The position numbers and the translations under genes are program-made. Of a DNA stretch of 64,000 nucleotides, positions 2,413 through 13,805 are shown one piece after another; position 1 is the stretch's first letter, and each line of letters opens with the position of its first letter. The notes beneath the pieces were generated by a model. That model saw nothing but the letters and a program-made list of their open reading frames with translations. It was not told the origin of the DNA and made no database searches. The stretch lies in the IMG/VR virus record IMGVR_UViG_3300033997_000310, positions 32,001 through 96,000 of that record. One strand, 5' to 3'. Source of the DNA: a virus.

Positions 2413-2729
2413 CCAGGGTGGAATTCCCCATTCTCAAGCCAGTTGCCGGTGGATCCAAGAGCGTTCCATGGGCGTGGATCGAGCAATATCGGTCTGTCGC
2501 CATGCGCAACCATTATCAGACGCTCGAACGGCTGGCGGAAAGAGGTGGCCTAAGTCCGGGCGAAATATGGTTGCTCATCGCTGGTGTCCGTCCGTCCAGA
2601 ATGCCAAGAGATGTTTCTGCGGTACGTTTTCAGAACGTGATTGACCGGACCATAGAACGCTGGCGTCAAGATGCCAGCAGCGGTGAGCAAGGAGGCGACG
2701 ATGGCCAGCACGAACGAGCAAATTCTTGA
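2409..2729 (+). CDS. hypothetical phage protein
   Basis: GTG start overlapping the upstream stop; QTLERLAERGGLSPGE stretch. Confidence 0.6.
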   Translation: MTRVEFPILKPVAGGSKSVPWAWIEQYRSVAMRNHYQTLERLAERGGLSPGEIWLLIAGVRPSRMPRDVSAVRFQNVIDRTIERWRQDASSGEQGGDDGQHERANS

Positions 2730-3660
2730 AGAGCAGGTAAGGCACTCCATCGGCCTCCAGCGACTGGCCGGCGGCACCGTCAAGGACATCCTGGCCCTGC
2801 TGGCAAAGGTAGACACCGACATCGTTGCCAAGATGCGCGAGTACGAGATCGAGGGCCGCAGCGAGGCCGCCCGACGGCGGCTGCAACGCATGCTGGAGGC
2901 CGTGCGCGAGATCATTCAGGAAGGCCACTCCGAGCTTTACCCGCGCCTGCGTGACGACATGTTCGAGCTGGCCAAGTACGAGGCTGAGTACCAGCAGAAC
3001 CTCTTGAGCAGCACCGTGCCGGTGGCCATTGACGTCATCAAGCCGTCTGTCGAGCAACTGACGGCCATCGTCACGCAGCGCCCGATGCAGGGCCTGCTGC
3101 TGAAGGATTGGGCCGCCGGCCTGGAATCCGACAAGCTGAAGCGCGTGGAGCAGGCCATCAACATCGGGTTTGCGGAAGGCGAGACGATTGACGACATGGT
3201 CCGGCGCGTCCGCGGCACTCGGGCGAAGCAATTTCGGGATGGCGTGCTGGATATCAGCCGGCGGAATGCGGAAGCCGTGGTTAGGACGGCTGTGGCCCAC
3301 ACGGCGCAGTCGGCGCGGGATGACTTGTTCGCGGCGAATGCAGACCTCATCAAGGCGGTGGCCTGGAACAGCACCATTGACAACAGAACCTGCGTCGTCG
3401 CGGGAACGATGGTGATGACGCCAGATGGTGAAACCCCCATCGAAAGCCTCACGCCCGGTGACAAAGTGATCGGAGGATCTGGAGTTATTCGCTCCGTCCT
3501 GCATACCGACACAAAGAAGGTTTCCGAACTGATGAGGGTCAAGCTATCGAACGGCGTCACGATACTGTGCACACCTGATCATATGTTCAGAACCGAATCA
3601 GGAAATTGGCTTCCGGCACATATGATGATGTCTGGTACGAAGTTGTCAGCCAAGCTATAA
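2701..3660 (+). CDS. head morphogenesis protein (SPP1 gp7/MuF) N-extein fused to split intein N-fragment
   Basis: GGAGG RBS; MuF-like AEAVVRTA..H and STIDNRT; intein block A CVVAGT begins at 3391; block B TPDHMF; stop after 89 intein residues. Confidence 0.88.
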   Translation: MASTNEQILEEQVRHSIGLQRLAGGTVKDILALLAKVDTDIVAKMREYEIEGRSEAARRRLQRMLEAVREIIQEGHSELYPRLRDDMFELAKYEAEYQQNLLSSTVPVAIDVIKPSVEQLTAIVTQRPMQGLLLKDWAAGLESDKLKRVEQAINIGFAEGETIDDMVRRVRGTRAKQFRDGVLDISRRNAEAVVRTAVAHTAQSARDDLFAANADLIKAVAWNSTIDNRTCVVAGTMVMTPDGETPIESLTPGDKVIGGSGVIRSVLHTDTKKVSELMRVKLSNGVTILCTPDHMFRTESGNWLPAHMMMSGTKLSAKL

Positions 3661-3729
3661 TGGCCGAACCCCCACGGCGCTGGTAACGCCATGGGGGTTC
3701 ATACCAACCACGCTTTGTAGGAGCGAGGA

Positions 3730-4836
3730 ATGGCGGGACAAATAGTATCAATCTGCGCCACATGCGCAAATGAATTTGTCCGGAGTGGCGGCAAATCCGG
3801 GAAATTCTGCTCTGTTGATTGTTACAGGAAATCCCAAAGGTCTGGGGATTATAAGCGCGGCCCAGGTCCATTGAGGACGAGAAGGCCATGCGCGACCTGC
3901 GGTGAAATTACCGTAAGAAACCCTGCCACCGACAGGCACGGAAACAAGTGTGACAAGGTTTTCTGCTCTCGCGCCTGCTATGATCAGCATAGGTCCAATG
4001 CGATCAAGGCCAGAAAAGTAAACTGCGCTCATTGTGGTGTCGCATTCTCCCCAGGATCTGGCAATGGATTTAAGTATTGCTCTCATGAATGCAGGGTTGA
4101 GCACAAGCGTCCAAAGACTGTCATCTGCATAAATTGCGGGTGTGAATTTTGCGCAATAAAGCGCATGAAGAGACCAAATAACAGAATTGAGTTTATTTCT
4201 GTATCAGGCGCAAAAACCTGCTCGAAAGAATGTAATTTGGCGTGGATCAGCAACAATGAAGAGAGAAAGAAAAAGATTGGCGATGCGTTCCGTGGGCCAA
4301 ATCATCCGAACTGGCAGGGCGGGAAATCGTCACTTAACAACGTATCTAAAAGAGGTGCTAGTTGGGAGAAGATAAGGAAAAAGGCACTGAAGAGAGACAG
4401 GCACAAATGCGTTGACTGTGGCATCAGCAACGACCAGTGCATTGAAAAGTTTGGTCGCGGCCTTGATGTAGATCATGTCGTTCCATTCCACAACTTTTCA
4501 AAGTTCAAGGAAGCAAATAGATTATCCAATCTGCAATGCAGATGCAGTTCATGTCACAAGCGCGCCGAAGCCAAGCGAAAAAACGTACAAATGGTGCTAC
4601 CATTCCAGGACAGTGCGAAACGCAGACACAAGGGCGGGCATCGTATGGGCGAAAAGCATCCTAAAGCGAAACTTACATCTGCCCAGGTCATGCAAATCAG
4701 GAAAGAGCACGCTGATGGAGTTTCAGCGCAAGAGCTTTCGCAGAGTTACGGCATCAAAAAGTCAAATGTGCACGCTATAATTAAGGGGAAGACCTGGAAA
4801 TGCCTACCAATATCACCGTCGAACACGCCGAATTGA
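3730..4836 (+). CDS. free-standing HNH homing endonuclease with repeated zinc-finger motifs and a C-terminal HTH
   Basis: Several CxxC..FCS..C units, NHPNWQGG, RDRHKCVDCG..VDHVVP..N..NLQCRCSSCH, GEKHPKAKLT HTH; low GC. Confidence 0.9.
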   Translation: MAGQIVSICATCANEFVRSGGKSGKFCSVDCYRKSQRSGDYKRGPGPLRTRRPCATCGEITVRNPATDRHGNKCDKVFCSRACYDQHRSNAIKARKVNCAHCGVAFSPGSGNGFKYCSHECRVEHKRPKTVICINCGCEFCAIKRMKRPNNRIEFISVSGAKTCSKECNLAWISNNEERKKKIGDAFRGPNHPNWQGGKSSLNNVSKRGASWEKIRKKALKRDRHKCVDCGISNDQCIEKFGRGLDVDHVVPFHNFSKFKEANRLSNLQCRCSSCHKRAEAKRKNVQMVLPFQDSAKRRHKGGHRMGEKHPKAKLTSAQVMQIRKEHADGVSAQELSQSYGIKKSNVHAIIKGKTWKCLPISPSNTPN

Positions 4837-5336
4837 TAACGCTCGATGAGCCTGTTGATGTTTTCGACATCCAGGTTGATGTTGATGAAAGCTTTGTCTG
4901 TGGCGGCATTGTTCTAAGCAACTCGTCCATTTGCAGGACTCGTGACAGCCTGCAATACACACCTGTGGAGCATAAGCCAATAGGTCACAGCGTTCCCTGG
5001 CTCCAAGGCCCGGGTCGGTCTCACTGGAATTGCCGATCCAGCAGCGTCCCGATCACCAAGTCATGGCGCGAACTCGGCATAGACGAAGACGAATTGCCGA
5101 TCACCACGCGCGCCTCAATGGACGGCCAAGTGCCAGCCGACATGACCTACAGCGACTGGCTCAAAAAGCAGCCGCGCTCCGTGGTTGACGAAATCCTGGG
5201 TGAGAAAAAGGCCAAGCTGTTCCTCGACGGCGGCGTCACCCTGGATCGGTTCGAGGATCGCGCCGGGAATGAACTCTCGCTCAAGGAATTGCGCGCCCGC
5301 GAGGCTGAAGCCTTCCGCAAAGTCGGCCTGTCCTGA
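4800..5336 (+). CDS. split intein C-fragment (41 aa) fused to MuF C-extein
   Basis: Block F VFDIQV..DESFVCGG; block G IVLSN/S with Asn at 4920-4922; extein SSIC...HWNCRS MuF motif. Confidence 0.88.
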   Translation: MPTNITVEHAELITLDEPVDVFDIQVDVDESFVCGGIVLSNSSICRTRDSLQYTPVEHKPIGHSVPWLQGPGRSHWNCRSSSVPITKSWRELGIDEDELPITTRASMDGQVPADMTYSDWLKKQPRSVVDEILGEKKAKLFLDGGVTLDRFEDRAGNELSLKELRAREAEAFRKVGLS

Positions 5337-5409
5337 AAGCGCGCGTTTTTGGACAAGACAGAGCAATGGATTTCTTCCATGGTTGGTTCATCAACCACGG
5401 GAGATTTCC

Positions 5410-5703
5410 ATGCTCAATCGCATCGCCGCCTGCATCATTGCCGTCACCATCGCCGGGCCCGCCCTGGCACAGAGCGTCCAGCCGGTCACCAGCATCGGGA
5501 TCAACCAAGTCGTGGCCCCGCTGGACATGGAGACGGCCCGCCAGCTCGTGACCTACGTGCGCCTGAATGGCCTGCAATGCCGCGTGCCGGACATGATCCG
5601 GCGCTGCCTGCTGGAAAGGTGCTTTGAGGTCAGATGCGATCTGCAGTGGACTTATACACTCCGCGCTACGCCCACGGGCGGGATCAGCATCCAGGCTGAG
5701 TGA
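5410..5703 (+). CDS. small exported protein
   Basis: GGGAG RBS; signal peptide MLNRIAACIIAVTIAGPALA; four Cys in the mature part. Confidence 0.65.
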   Translation: MLNRIAACIIAVTIAGPALAQSVQPVTSIGINQVVAPLDMETARQLVTYVRLNGLQCRVPDMIRRCLLERCFEVRCDLQWTYTLRATPTGGISIQAE

Positions 5704-5857
5704 TCGCGGCGCCGTCAAATATGGACGCAGCGCCCACACTGTCTGAACAATGTGTTGTTGCGATATGTGCAGTGCGCGGTTAATGGCATTAAACCGCAGG
5801 CATTGTCCATATAAACCGGCGGTGATTTGGTTTATTCAGTCACCACCGGTCAGGCTA

Positions 5858-6385
5858 TCAGGCGGCCAAATCAAGGTTAACGTATTCGCTCCACTGAGCC
5901 ACGGCGGCTTGCCGATAGGCTTCAGCGGCATCATTGATGTCGGAAAAACAGCCAAGCTCTTTGACGCGCTTACCAATTGTAATTTGTGCGCGCCATTTAC
6001 CACTCTTTTTGTGCCAGCTAACGCCTTTGATCCCTGATTTATTTCTACTGCTTAACGTCTTATTTACCTCATTCTCTGCCCTGGACGCTGGACGAAGATT
6101 TGACCAAGCGTTGTTGCTGGGGTTACGGTCCTTATGATCAATTTCATATGGGCACGATCCAGTCATCCAGACGAAGGCCAATCTATGGGCCGAATACATC
6201 GCATCACCAATACCGATAAGCCGATAGCCGTCCGGCCTGTTATACCCGGCCACGTCGCCAGCGCTGACACGTCGACCATTGCCAGCCAGCCACCGGAACA
6301 TTCCTGTATCTGGATCGTAATGCATCAGTTTCCGCAAGTGCTCTTGCGTAGGAAGCTGGGCAGGCGTATTTCTGCGCTTAGTCAT
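5858..6385 (-). CDS. HNH endonuclease with AP2 domain
   Basis: YDPDTG, AHRLA, IDHKDRNPSNN..NLR, NKSGIKGV, W.AQI. Confidence 0.92.
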   Translation of the reverse strand: MTKRRNTPAQLPTQEHLRKLMHYDPDTGMFRWLAGNGRRVSAGDVAGYNRPDGYRLIGIGDAMYSAHRLAFVWMTGSCPYEIDHKDRNPSNNAWSNLRPASRAENEVNKTLSSRNKSGIKGVSWHKKSGKWRAQITIGKRVKELGCFSDINDAAEAYRQAAVAQWSEYVNLDLAA

Positions 6386-6507
6386 TTGCGGCTCCTATAA
6401 GCCCGGTGATCAGAAAGGCCGGACACCGCAGCAACGGTTCCGGCCTTTCGCCATTGTGCCACATGCACATAGCATCATCAACACCACGAACGAACTTACC
6501 TGCTTCT

Positions 6508-7401
6508 CTACAGCCGATAAGCCCTATCGCTGAACTTGTCCTTGCCTCCGATGCTCACCACCTGCGCACGGCACCGGCTGGCAGCCAGGAACGCTGACTC
6601 GGCCTCAGCAGCTTCAGCGGTTGTCATATCTCGGAACCACGCCTTGGGCCTTCCCGCCTCACCAGCAGACCAGCGATATCCGCGAGCCTTCAGCGCATCC
6701 TTCATCTCAAACGGGGAATGCACCGACCACACCCGATAGGAAGGCCGCCGGGCTGCGTCCAGCAGCGCCTGCATCACCGGACGGCCCGAGACGGGTAGCG
6801 TCTGCGCCAACGCATGCACGACCGCCTGGCAGTCGTTCCCGGCCCGGTGCGCATCGAAGAAAAAACCCAACCGATAGGCGATGAAGGCCAGCTTCTGCGA
6901 CTCGATGCCTTCCGCTTTCCAATCCACATCGCTGACGCTGCATGACCAGTGCTTGGCTGCGAAGCATGGAAAGCGCCGCTCTACCTTAGGCCTGTCGAAA
7001 TCGGCGTTGTGGGCGATCACCAGATCGGCGGCGGCGCACAGCGATTCCACCAAGCAGTCATCGAACCCCAGACCGCGCACCATATCGTCCGTGATGCCGG
7101 TGATGGAGACGATTTCCGGCGACAGTGGCACGCCTGGATCCTCGAACATTGATAGCGGCGTGCCCACCTCAAAGATGCGACCCGTCGTCGGACAGAACGA
7201 AAAGGGCAGGGCGCCGAACTCGATGATGGAGGCGTTTTCCTCCAGGCCGGTGGTCTCGGTGTCGATCACGAGGCCGGTCTTGAACGGTTCGCCGTCGCCG
7301 CGCTCGTGATAGCGGTCAACAGGCCGGAACCGGCGGACGACGCGGAAGTCGCCGGTCTGTTCCAGAAGGTCGATGCACTGCGGGATCGTGATGCTGGTCA
7401 T
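6508..7401 (-). CDS. DnaQ-like (DEDDh) 3'-5' exonuclease
   Basis: IDTETTG, AHNADFD, HRAGND motifs. Confidence 0.9.
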   Translation of the reverse strand: MTSITIPQCIDLLEQTGDFRVVRRFRPVDRYHERGDGEPFKTGLVIDTETTGLEENASIIEFGALPFSFCPTTGRIFEVGTPLSMFEDPGVPLSPEIVSITGITDDMVRGLGFDDCLVESLCAAADLVIAHNADFDRPKVERRFPCFAAKHWSCSVSDVDWKAEGIESQKLAFIAYRLGFFFDAHRAGNDCQAVVHALAQTLPVSGRPVMQALLDAARRPSYRVWSVHSPFEMKDALKARGYRWSAGEAGRPKAWFRDMTTAEAAEAESAFLAASRCRAQVVSIGGKDKFSDRAYRL

Positions 7402-7568
7402 GAGTCTTGATATCCCTGCCACTTGCCCTGTTCCCAGGCGCGAAATTGCGATTCCGAATAGCCGCTCGGAATTTTTGGCGATTGCCCGTCGCCAAGCTCA
7501 TGGTTCGTCGCTTGGCGATACCCATTCCAGAACGCCTCGTGTTCAGGGCTTCCGTGTTCGTAGTCCAT
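7398..7568 (-). CDS. small hypothetical protein
   Basis: 56 aa ORF overlapping the exonuclease start. Confidence 0.4.
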   Translation of the reverse strand: MDYEHGSPEHEAFWNGYRQATNHELGDGQSPKIPSGYSESQFRAWEQGKWQGYQDS

Positions 7569-12659: not shown

Positions 12660-13805
12660 ATGCCGGTTCTGAGTTACAAGTATCGCCTGTATCCGACACG
12701 CGCCCAAGGTGATGCGTTGACGGCGATGCTCGGCTCTTTCTGCGAATTGTACAATGCGGCCTTGCAGCAACGCATAGAAGCATACCGCCGTCAGGGAAAA
12801 ACGCTTCGTTATATTGACCAGGCCGGCGAGTTGAAGTCAGTGCGCGCCGTTGACGAACAGATGGCTGGCTACAGTTACAGTGCGGAGCAGCAGGTATTGC
12901 GCCGGCTAGACAAGGCATTTTCTGCTTTTTTTGGACGGATAAAAAAGGGAAAGGCTGGCTTCCCACGCTTTCGCGCCAAGAGCATGTTTGACAGTGCCGA
13001 ATTTAGGTTCGGTGACGGACTGACGATTCGGAAGACTGGAAAGCTTAGGGTTGCCGGAATTGACGGAGAAATAAAGGTAAAATGGCACAGAGATATTCCT
13101 GTTCGAGCAAAGATTGGCGCGGCAGTAATATCCAGATCATGCGGCAAATGGTACATATGCTTTCAGATCACCATGCCAGACGCTTATGGACCTTGGCCCG
13201 ACAAGGGAGCGGTCGGCATCGACATGGGTCTGTCGAACCTGATCGCCACATCGGACGGCGAGACGGTGCGGACGCCGCAATTCACCAAGGATGCGGTCAA
13301 GAAGCAGCGCAGGCTTCAGCGTAGTCTCGCGCGCTGCAAGCGGGGCTCCAAGGGGCGGGCAAAGGCCCGGCGTAACCTTGCGCGGCACAGCGCCAAAACG
13401 GCTAATCGCCGCAGGGACTTTGCGCACAAACTTTCCCGCTCCTTGGTAGAACGCCACAGCACCATAGCGGTTGAGGACCTGAACATCACCGTATTGGCCC
13501 GTGCGATACTTGCCAAGTCGGTCCATAATGCCGCGTGGGCGCAGTTGCTGGGGATGATCGGATACAAAGCCGCAAATGCTGGTGTTCGGGTGATCGCCGT
13601 CAACCCACGGGGAACAAGCCAAACGTGCCCGGAGTGCGGAGCTTTGGCCGTCAAAAAGCTTGCGACCAGAGTTCATAACTGCGCAAATTGCGGCTGTGTT
13701 ATGGATCGAGATGTTGCGGCGGCCATGGTTATACTTAAACGGGCGCTTTCTGAAATGGGGCCGGGACACGGCCTTGAGACGATAAGTGGGCGGATTGCCG
13801 CGTAA
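12660..13805 (+). CDS. tnpB: RNA-guided endonuclease TnpB
   Basis: YKYRLYPT; RuvC GIDMG, VEDL, DRD; zinc finger CPECG..CANCG. Confidence 0.95.
   Translation: MPVLSYKYRLYPTRAQGDALTAMLGSFCELYNAALQQRIEAYRRQGKTLRYIDQAGELKSVRAVDEQMAGYSYSAEQQVLRRLDKAFSAFFGRIKKGKAGFPRFRAKSMFDSAEFRFGDGLTIRKTGKLRVAGIDGEIKVKWHRDIPVRAKIGAAVISRSCGKWYICFQITMPDAYGPWPDKGAVGIDMGLSNLIATSDGETVRTPQFTKDAVKKQRRLQRSLARCKRGSKGRAKARRNLARHSAKTANRRRDFAHKLSRSLVERHSTIAVEDLNITVLARAILAKSVHNAAWAQLLGMIGYKAANAGVRVIAVNPRGTSQTCPECGALAVKKLATRVHNCANCGCVMDRDVAAAMVILKRALSEMGPGHGLETISGRIAA

Follow-up and report, generated by a model that had tools for sequence, protein, structure and literature searches.

Naturally split inteins are few and serve as workhorses of protein ligation technology; one of them, gp41-1, is widely used as a fast split-intein tool. 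Here we describe a phage locus in which a head-morphogenesis gene of the SPP1 gp7/Mu F type (MuF) is divided between two reading frames that carry the N-terminal (IntN) and C-terminal (IntC) halves of a class 1 intein, with a free-standing HNH homing-endonuclease gene between them. The stretch of DNA that was analyzed, hereafter the window, is 64,000 nucleotides long and corresponds to bases 32001-96000 of the 114.8-kb IMG/VR virus record IMGVR_UViG_3300033997_000310, a phage genome with direct terminal repeats that CheckV rates as 100% complete. Coordinates without a prefix are those of the window. This stretch is contained in a single sequencing run, that of a subsurface metagenome that is probably the source sample, and no RNA run is found among the sequencing runs that hold it. 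We consider it likely that this phage makes its MuF protein by active trans-splicing from a gene fractured by a split class 1 intein with an HNH gene.

Described fractured genes and the MuF locus

The closest described systems are the fractured genes gp41-1, gp41-8, NrdJ-1, IMPDH-1, and NrdA-2 (Dassa, London, Stoddard & Pietrokovski 2009, PMC2677866). Their hosts are DNA and nucleotide enzymes and a terminase, and their nucleases are of the GIY-YIG and Vsr-like types only, fracturing caused by HNH nucleases having been predicted (PMC2677866). Hairpins were found in 15 of the 16 endonuclease 5' untranslated regions and were linked to translational restraint of the nuclease, and gp41-1 and gp41-8 combine a positive N-half with a negative C-half (PMC2677866). 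In the nrdA/mobE region of Aeromonas phage Aeh1, a free-standing HNH gene lies between the halves of a phage gene, as it does in the window; the Aeh1 genes share a transcript, and the nuclease is kept in check by a hairpin that masks the ribosome-binding site (PMC2677866; PMC3045599). This system differs in that it has no intein and its halves assemble non-covalently. The cyanobacterial DnaE split intein (Ssp/Npu) is likewise a naturally split class 1 intein broken at the same loop, and Ssp DnaE also lacks the penultimate His, according to the title of a reference cited in PMC4031507; however, the DnaE halves are located at unlinked loci without a nuclease, have a negative N-half and a positive C-half, and belong to a replication enzyme. 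Finally, inteins have been described in 2025 in MuF-type minor capsid proteins of actinobacteriophages (InterPro IPR006528; bioRxiv 10.1101/2025.01.02.630785). These share with the window the SPP1 gp7/MuF-type host and a non-canonical endonuclease arrangement, which their authors read as invasion by a free-standing nuclease, but they are contiguous (class 1 with an antisense LAGLIDADG reading frame, or class 3), not split, and without an HNH gene. In full-text literature searches, reports were found neither of a split intein hosted by a head-morphogenesis gene nor of one that is combined with a free-standing HNH.

By its sequence, the MuF locus falls within the fractured-gene definition of PMC2677866. 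As in the genes described there, the host gene's N-terminal portion with IntN, a short hairpin-containing spacer, a free-standing endonuclease gene, and IntC with the host's C-terminal portion follow one another on one strand; the intein is broken at the canonical endonuclease-insertion loop, the halves may bear opposite charges, and the context is phage or metagenomic. Both sets include nuclease-free variants, gp41-7 in the one and the locus L083 in the MuF family. The MuF locus differs in its host, a head-morphogenesis protein, in its nuclease, a zinc-finger HNH, in its spacer of 69 nucleotides as compared with 27-51 nucleotides, and in its penultimate Ser. With gp41-1 (6QAZ, 6RIZ) the intein shares class 1 chemistry, Cys1, and a basic-leaning IntN paired with an acidic IntC (PMC2677866), whereas the host of gp41-1 is a DNA helicase, identity is low, and the window intein is without the penultimate His. 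The host protein and the nuclease type are thus what is new here, the fractured-gene arrangement being already known. A first-pass annotation of the window had described fractured genes as occurring mainly in phage replication and nucleotide enzymes, to which a fractured terminase, already known (PMC2677866), is to be added. It had also contrasted the charges of the intein with those of DnaE; the opposite polarity is there, but it is not new, since gp41-1 and gp41-8 had already been described in this way.

Architecture of the interrupted MuF gene

An open reading frame (ORF) scan places three ORFs on the plus strand, at 2671/2701-3660, 3730-4836, and 4800-5336. The true start of the first is ATG 2701, which has AAGGAGG 7 nucleotides upstream and coincides with the residue at which homologues start. 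Its first 230 codons (2701-3390, +) encode the MuF N-extein, which ends ...STIDNRT, matches positions 5-240 of the head-morphogenesis profile PHROG 241 (E=1e-76), and is 50-56% identical to intact MuF proteins of 357-368 amino acids. The MuF C-extein (4923-5336, +; 137 amino acids plus stop) begins with the +1 Ser (SSIC...HWNCRS...), matches PHROG 241 positions 239-365 (E=9e-52), and is 48% identical to residues 205-366 of the intact MuF protein P0004. As the two matches cover profile positions 5-240 and 239-365, the exteins abut without loss or overlap. Joined, they have 230 + 137 = 367 amino acids (357-372 in intact relatives) and restore the motif T-I-D-N-R-T/S-S-I-C, in agreement with aligned intein-less homologues, which read ..LD.RT/T..C. 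The two pieces are the only MuF of the genome, as tblastn with intact P0004 returns exactly both of them. A Pfam PF04233 search of the genome is blank, each half alone falling under the Pfam cut-off because the MuF domain is cut in two.

IntN (3391-3660, +) comprises 89 amino acids and a TAA stop (3658-3660). Its Cys1 (3391-3393) directly follows the N-extein, block A reads CVVAGT, and TPDH provides the T-x-x-H of block B. Pfam Hint_2 matches residues 240-286 of the N-half with 33.8 bits (cut-off 28.4), and the nearest solved relative is the gp41-1 intein 6QAZ (phmmer E=4e-6, ~30% identity over 68 residues). The end of IntN coincides with the canonical endonuclease-insertion loop, and in the alignment eight other N-halves terminate at the matching position. 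The 41-residue IntC (4800-4922, +), identified by homology to 11 other C-halves, is separately initiated at ATG 4800, the first possible start codon in its frame after a stop. It contains block F (VFDIQVDVDESF) and a block G ending L-S-N; the terminus reads ...VFDIQVDVDESFVCGGIVLSN and is followed by Ser at +1. A family profile built from twelve C-halves matches the last 30-35 residues, that is, blocks F and G, of many solved inteins: Spl DnaX 7CFV is the best match (E=1e-4), PolB16, DnaB, RecA, and DnaE are matched as well, and gp41-1 weakly (E=0.57). All 12 aligned IntC sequences share the terminal Asn41, and the window retains Cys1, the block B T-x-x-H, the block-F Asp, the terminal Asn, and the +1 Ser. 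With nine Asp/Glu and no Lys/Arg, IntC has a net charge of -9; IntN has only +1 in the window, and whole-half charges at six loci range from -2 to +8 for IntN and from -5 to -9 for IntC. A comparison is offered by P0002, a protein of 488 amino acids whose exteins are 54% identical to those of the window and which contains a contiguous mini-intein at exactly the same site, ending L-H-N/S. This mini-intein is collinear with IntN and IntC, and the break in the window falls in its linker, the usual endonuclease-insertion point.

The middle ORF (3730-4836, +) encodes a full-length HNH protein of 368 amino acids with all catalytic and zinc residues present (Pfam HNH 22.6 bits, cut-off 21.4; PHROG 1271 E=4e-25). 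The protein consists of four CxxC...CSxxC zinc-finger-like repeats, a NUMOD3-like motif (E=0.024), the HNH core, and a C-terminal helix-turn-helix. The core carries a CxxC/CxxC zinc site (Cys4; C227/C230/C272/C275), and these residues are invariant in 34 sequences together with the 16 finger Cys and H249/N263/N267/H276. An AlphaFold2 model has a pLDDT score of 81; the top Foldseek match of its HNH core is the phage GVE2 HNH structure 5H0M (probability 1.0), and the zinc-finger array gave no significant Foldseek match. The guanine-plus-cytosine (GC) content of the HNH gene is 0.45-0.48, and that of the region ~3500-5000 is 0.45-0.52, as compared with 0.60-0.65 in the flanks. Low GC across the cassette is as expected of imported DNA.

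The spacer of 69 nucleotides between the N-half and the HNH gene and the end of the N-half contain regulatory-looking elements (3656-3729, +). TATAAT (3656-3661) overlaps the N-half stop codon, a strong hairpin occupies ~3666-3700 (fold energy -35.8 kcal/mol, z=-3.8, 0 of 200 shuffles as stable), and a second small hairpin pairs with the Shine-Dalgarno sequence of the HNH gene, AGGAG (3719-3723). Putative translation and transcription signals for the C-half lie inside the 3' end of the HNH ORF (4776-4799, +), namely TATAAT (4776-4781) and the Shine-Dalgarno-like AAGGGGAAG (4783-4791), and the IntC start region is unstructured (z=+2.7). In the window, L082, L084, and L174, a TATAAT either overlaps the stop codon of the N-half or comes right after it, and in the window and L174 another is present ~20 nucleotides upstream of IntC. 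Hairpins upstream of HNH in L082, L084, L174, and L175 were not significantly more stable than shuffled sequence. These elements suggest that the hairpin may restrain translation of the nuclease and that the TATAAT elements could have a role in expression. The three ORFs may be co-transcribed.

The first-pass annotation had read the locus in the same way, with an N-extein ending STIDNRT, an 89-residue IntN and a stop, a 368-residue HNH ORF, and a separately initiated, highly acidic IntC of 41 residues ending LSN before SSIC...HWNCRS, so that the joined exteins would give the normal MuF motif. The ORF coordinates, the Hint_2 and HNH matches above their cut-offs, the computed IntC charge, and the continuity of PHROG 241 across the junction agree with it in each of these points, and every computational test upholds the architecture of a MuF gene fractured by a split class 1 intein whose halves enclose a free-standing HNH gene.

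Distribution of split MuF genes and their nuclease

The window belongs to a family of split MuF genes. At least nine distinct N-halves, those of the window, of P0007, P0027, and P0090, and of the loci among them, end at one alignment position, and ~13 distinct C-halves begin with a homologous acidic IntC of 35-41 residues; the C-halves from databases are P0122, P0124, P0128, P0138, P0149, P0239, P0300, and P0338. N-half, HNH, and C-half follow in this order at five loci: the window, L082 and L084 from a JGI metagenome, and L174 and L175 from IMG/VR. At L083 the halves are 23 nucleotides apart, with their own Shine-Dalgarno and no nuclease. These counts of arrangements refer to loci read as DNA, whereas P0007/P0122, P0027, P0090, P0124, P0128, P0149, P0239, P0300, and P0338 are represented by protein only and stand outside them. 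In L082, L084, L174, and L175 the arrangement stands near portal and capsid genes; the L174 and L175 loci lie on one side of the portal gene, and L175 additionally has scaffold-like and capsid-like ORFs on its other side. The extra loci came from a metagenome scan and from a scan with the HNH protein P0224. When IMG/VR was first scanned with the N-half alignment, the matches were for the most part contiguous, unrelated inteins of terminases and other genes, without any additional split MuF; a scan of GTDB genomes returned other inteins only, and the GenBank phages of INPHARED contained no split MuF. Pseudomonas phage LKO4 only has a GIY-YIG gene between portal and MuF.

Across the loci, identity is 25-31% for N-exteins, 30-49% for IntN, 47-64% for IntC, and 40-53% for HNH; the intein parts are thus better conserved than the N-exteins. 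Between the relatives L082 and L084, the ratio of non-synonymous to synonymous divergence (dN/dS) is 0.17 for IntN and 0.04-0.07 for the exteins, so that in these relatives IntN is under purifying selection and is not decaying. The same pair is 89-97% identical in the exteins, 78% in IntN, 64% in IntC, and 61% in HNH. A swap of the whole cassette between the two was rejected, as synonymous divergence is similar in IntN (0.77) and in the C-extein (0.82); looser constraint therefore explains the difference in IntN, and possibly only IntC and HNH have been exchanged.

Relatives of the HNH protein form at least 80 clusters, all metagenomic, with one to three C-terminal helix-turn-helix repeats, and they occupy one of two places, the interior of the MuF intein or the position immediately behind an intact MuF gene. 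The latter arrangement, with a free-standing gene immediately after an intact MuF, is found at six IMG/VR loci (L150-L155), which represent ~4 distinct phages as L150/L151 and L154/L155 are near-identical pairs. At one of them (L152:3369-4472, +), the HNH ORF has lost its helix-turn-helix tail and instead terminates in a second, diverged MuF C-terminus (...LRAKNAAAFAKAGL), so that a copy of the MuF 3' end stands on either side of the nuclease gene. Such a duplicate is the typical scar of a homing-endonuclease gene that arrives with a piece of its donor's target gene. In sequence comparison, the HNH protein shares no similarity with the middle of large contiguous MuF inteins. The free-standing relatives beside MuF, the scar at L152, and the lack of similarity to large-intein centers favor a free-standing nuclease invading a mini-intein, as in the model of Dassa et al, and argue against an origin by decay of an in-frame endonuclease domain. 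A quick tree of the HNH proteins, which has weak deep support and leaves the number of context switches unsettled, interleaves members inside inteins with members after MuF. The insertion-site motif, compared between MuF genes with and without HNH, did not clearly point to a cleavage target, and the GenBank phages of INPHARED contained no close HNH relative, the best being ~25% identical and found in haloarchaeal viruses. The sporadic, mobile-element-like distribution and the separate DNA-binding modules fit a free-standing homing endonuclease, whose cleavage activity is predicted.

A second intein site of MuF lies inside the conserved H-x-N/C-R-S motif, and both sites fall in the most conserved MuF motifs. 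P0003 has a mini-intein at this second site. Many proteins of ~725 amino acids look to carry a large intein there, as their C-extein match starts at query residue 77; the database proteins noted for this site are P0003, P0247, P0251, P0261, P0274, P0369, and P0244. Pfam was checked for P0247 and P0244 only, and P0244 (1025 amino acids) has two separate intein-type Pfam matches. Other phage ORFs in IMG/VR (L043, L046, L052, L056, and L063) end ~86-101 residues past the Cys1 of an intein related to IntN and are possibly further split inteins in other genes, an estimate based solely on how far away the stop codon is. Close MuF relatives of 530-570 amino acids (P0008, P0010, P0017, P0048, and P0285) are fused to ADP-ribosyltransferase toxin-type domains (PF03496, PF01129, ART-PolyVal); the MuF of the window is without such a domain.

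Upstream of MuF, the window contains a DNA methylase gene (511-1140), an M16 peptidase-like gene (1137-2264), and an ORF of 111 amino acids. A second free-standing homing-endonuclease gene (5858-6385, -) with HNH_3 and AP2 domains (Pfam E=2e-12 and 4e-7; PHROG 99 E=8e-63) is located ~500 bp downstream of the C-half, where GC is again low (0.50-0.52). The MuF neighborhood has two unrelated selfish nuclease genes. Just past this gene is a DEDD-type exonuclease gene (6508-7422, -; Pfam RNase_T; PHROG 192, DNA polymerase exonuclease subunit). A TnpB/IS605 OrfB-type gene is located at 12660-13805 (+; Pfam OrfB_IS605, Cas12f1-like TNB, and HTH_OrfB_IS605; PHROG 506 E=3e-95).

Probable trans-splicing and its alternatives

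The likely course of events is the following. A mini-intein would originally have occupied the conserved ..D-x-R-T/S.. site of MuF, and a free-standing zinc-finger HNH gene would then have invaded it at the usual endonuclease-insertion loop. The locus would now be read from one strand as three proteins: N-extein with IntN (319 amino acids), the HNH protein, translated from its own Shine-Dalgarno sequence behind the hairpin, and IntC with C-extein (178 amino acids), whose start overlaps the 3' end of the HNH gene. The acidic IntC would dock onto IntN and rebuild a class 1 HINT domain related to gp41-1, which would trans-splice the exteins by means of Cys1, the +1 Ser, and the terminal Asn. The spliced product would be a MuF protein of 367 amino acids with the junction ...IDNRT-SSIC.... 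The HNH protein, in turn, may cut HNH-free MuF alleles of co-infecting phages, and repair would copy the whole IntN-HNH-IntC cassette into them.

Several observations weigh against this reading. The penultimate Ser that the first-pass annotation had pointed out is present, but it is a peculiarity of the window copy, which alone departs from the His found in 11 of 12 aligned IntC sequences; the window also has Glu in place of the block-F His that several members possess. The penultimate His (G:6) or the block-F His assists Asn cyclization (PMC4031507), and the latter has been suggested as a substitute for a missing penultimate His (PMC5050341), so that with both missing, splicing in the window could be slow or blocked at the branched intermediate. 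The penultimate His is nevertheless an assisting residue and not a strictly defining one for inteins, and splicing is documented for phage class 1 inteins that have Gly, Lys, or Ser in its place (PMC5050341, Kelley et al). Judged from these residues, the splicing efficiency of the window copy is uncertain, and its penultimate Ser may be a liability rather than a feature. Furthermore, L082 has an in-frame TAG at C-extein position +2 (L082:1713-1715), where L084 has Gln; this copy looks inactivated, unless the codon is a sequencing error, and the nonsense codon implies that decay does occur in some copies. A single pair of relatives, not the window, provided the selection estimate. Lastly, the portal gene (G000:C1:10384-11700) is ~23 kb upstream of MuF, which is atypical, as MuF directly follows portal in L083 and L174 and is separated from it by one ORF of 103 amino acids in L175.

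The same observations bear on the alternatives. If the intein halves no longer splice and act as a tight docking module only, MuF would be a non-covalent protein of two chains, one tagged with IntN and the other with IntC. The unique loss of the penultimate His, combined with the absence of the block-F His, would suit such a module, as would the strong negative charge that IntC retains and that docking needs, and the halves of Aeh1 nrdA, split by an HNH gene, provide a precedent for assembly without splicing (PMC2677866; PMC3045599). We nevertheless regard docking alone as rather unlikely: the window keeps all of the catalytic residues listed above, every relative has the canonical set, splicing does occur in natural inteins that lack the penultimate His (PMC5050341, PMC4031507), and ~130 extra residues inserted in the most conserved MuF motif would probably disturb function. 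That the HNH invasion simply destroyed MuF, in a phage that does not need it or in a contig that represents a defective genome, is decidedly improbable. The premature stop in the C-extein of L082, the distance from portal, and the lost His are what one would expect of a dead gene, but they are set against three intact ORFs with their own start signals, in the only MuF copy of a complete, terminally repeated genome sequenced at ~88x, against a split that is kept across lineages whose N-exteins are just 25-31% identical, and against the IntN dN/dS of 0.17 in relatives.

It is very improbable that one contiguous polypeptide is made because a self-splicing intron, or read-through combined with frameshifting, eliminates the interruption before translation or in its course. 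The N-half and the HNH ORF do share a reading frame, yet two in-frame stops separate them, the C-half is in another frame, and the frame relations differ in L174. No Rfam intron or relevant RNA family was found at E<=1 over 2500-6500, and intein blocks A/B and F/G lie exactly on either side of the interruption, an arrangement for which an intron would have no need. That errors of assembly or sequencing simulate a split in a truly contiguous intein, to which the single source metagenome might point, is effectively refuted: Logan re-assembly of the source run by a second assembler is identical over 3300-5400, stop codon included, at a k-mer depth of ~88 and without variants, and in independent contigs from other samples the reading frame ends at the homologous codon.

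Active trans-splicing of MuF would carry the fractured-gene arrangement from DNA and nucleotide enzymes over to virion morphogenesis and would add HNH to their nucleases, as predicted but not observed in 2009. We lean, with reserve, toward a wider reading that takes these points jointly. At least a dozen phage lineages would carry split inteins related to gp41-1 in MuF, and virion assembly in them would need trans-splicing. A zinc-finger HNH specialized on the MuF locus would alternate between the slot downstream of the gene and the intein loop, all stages of fracturing would be represented at one site, and the inteins would be diverged, fast, and possibly mutually orthogonal. The natural variants, at least a dozen of them and with Ser or Cys at +1, form a useful pool for orthogonal pairs, and the window copy, without both His helpers, is a natural test of their dispensability in a trans-splicing intein. 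One gene offers four comparable states, intein-free, mini-intein, nuclease-invaded split, and nuclease-free split with adjacent halves, and the nuclease family beside intact MuF genes can be compared alongside them. If true, the joint reading would make the gene-fracturing model directly testable in a single gene system.

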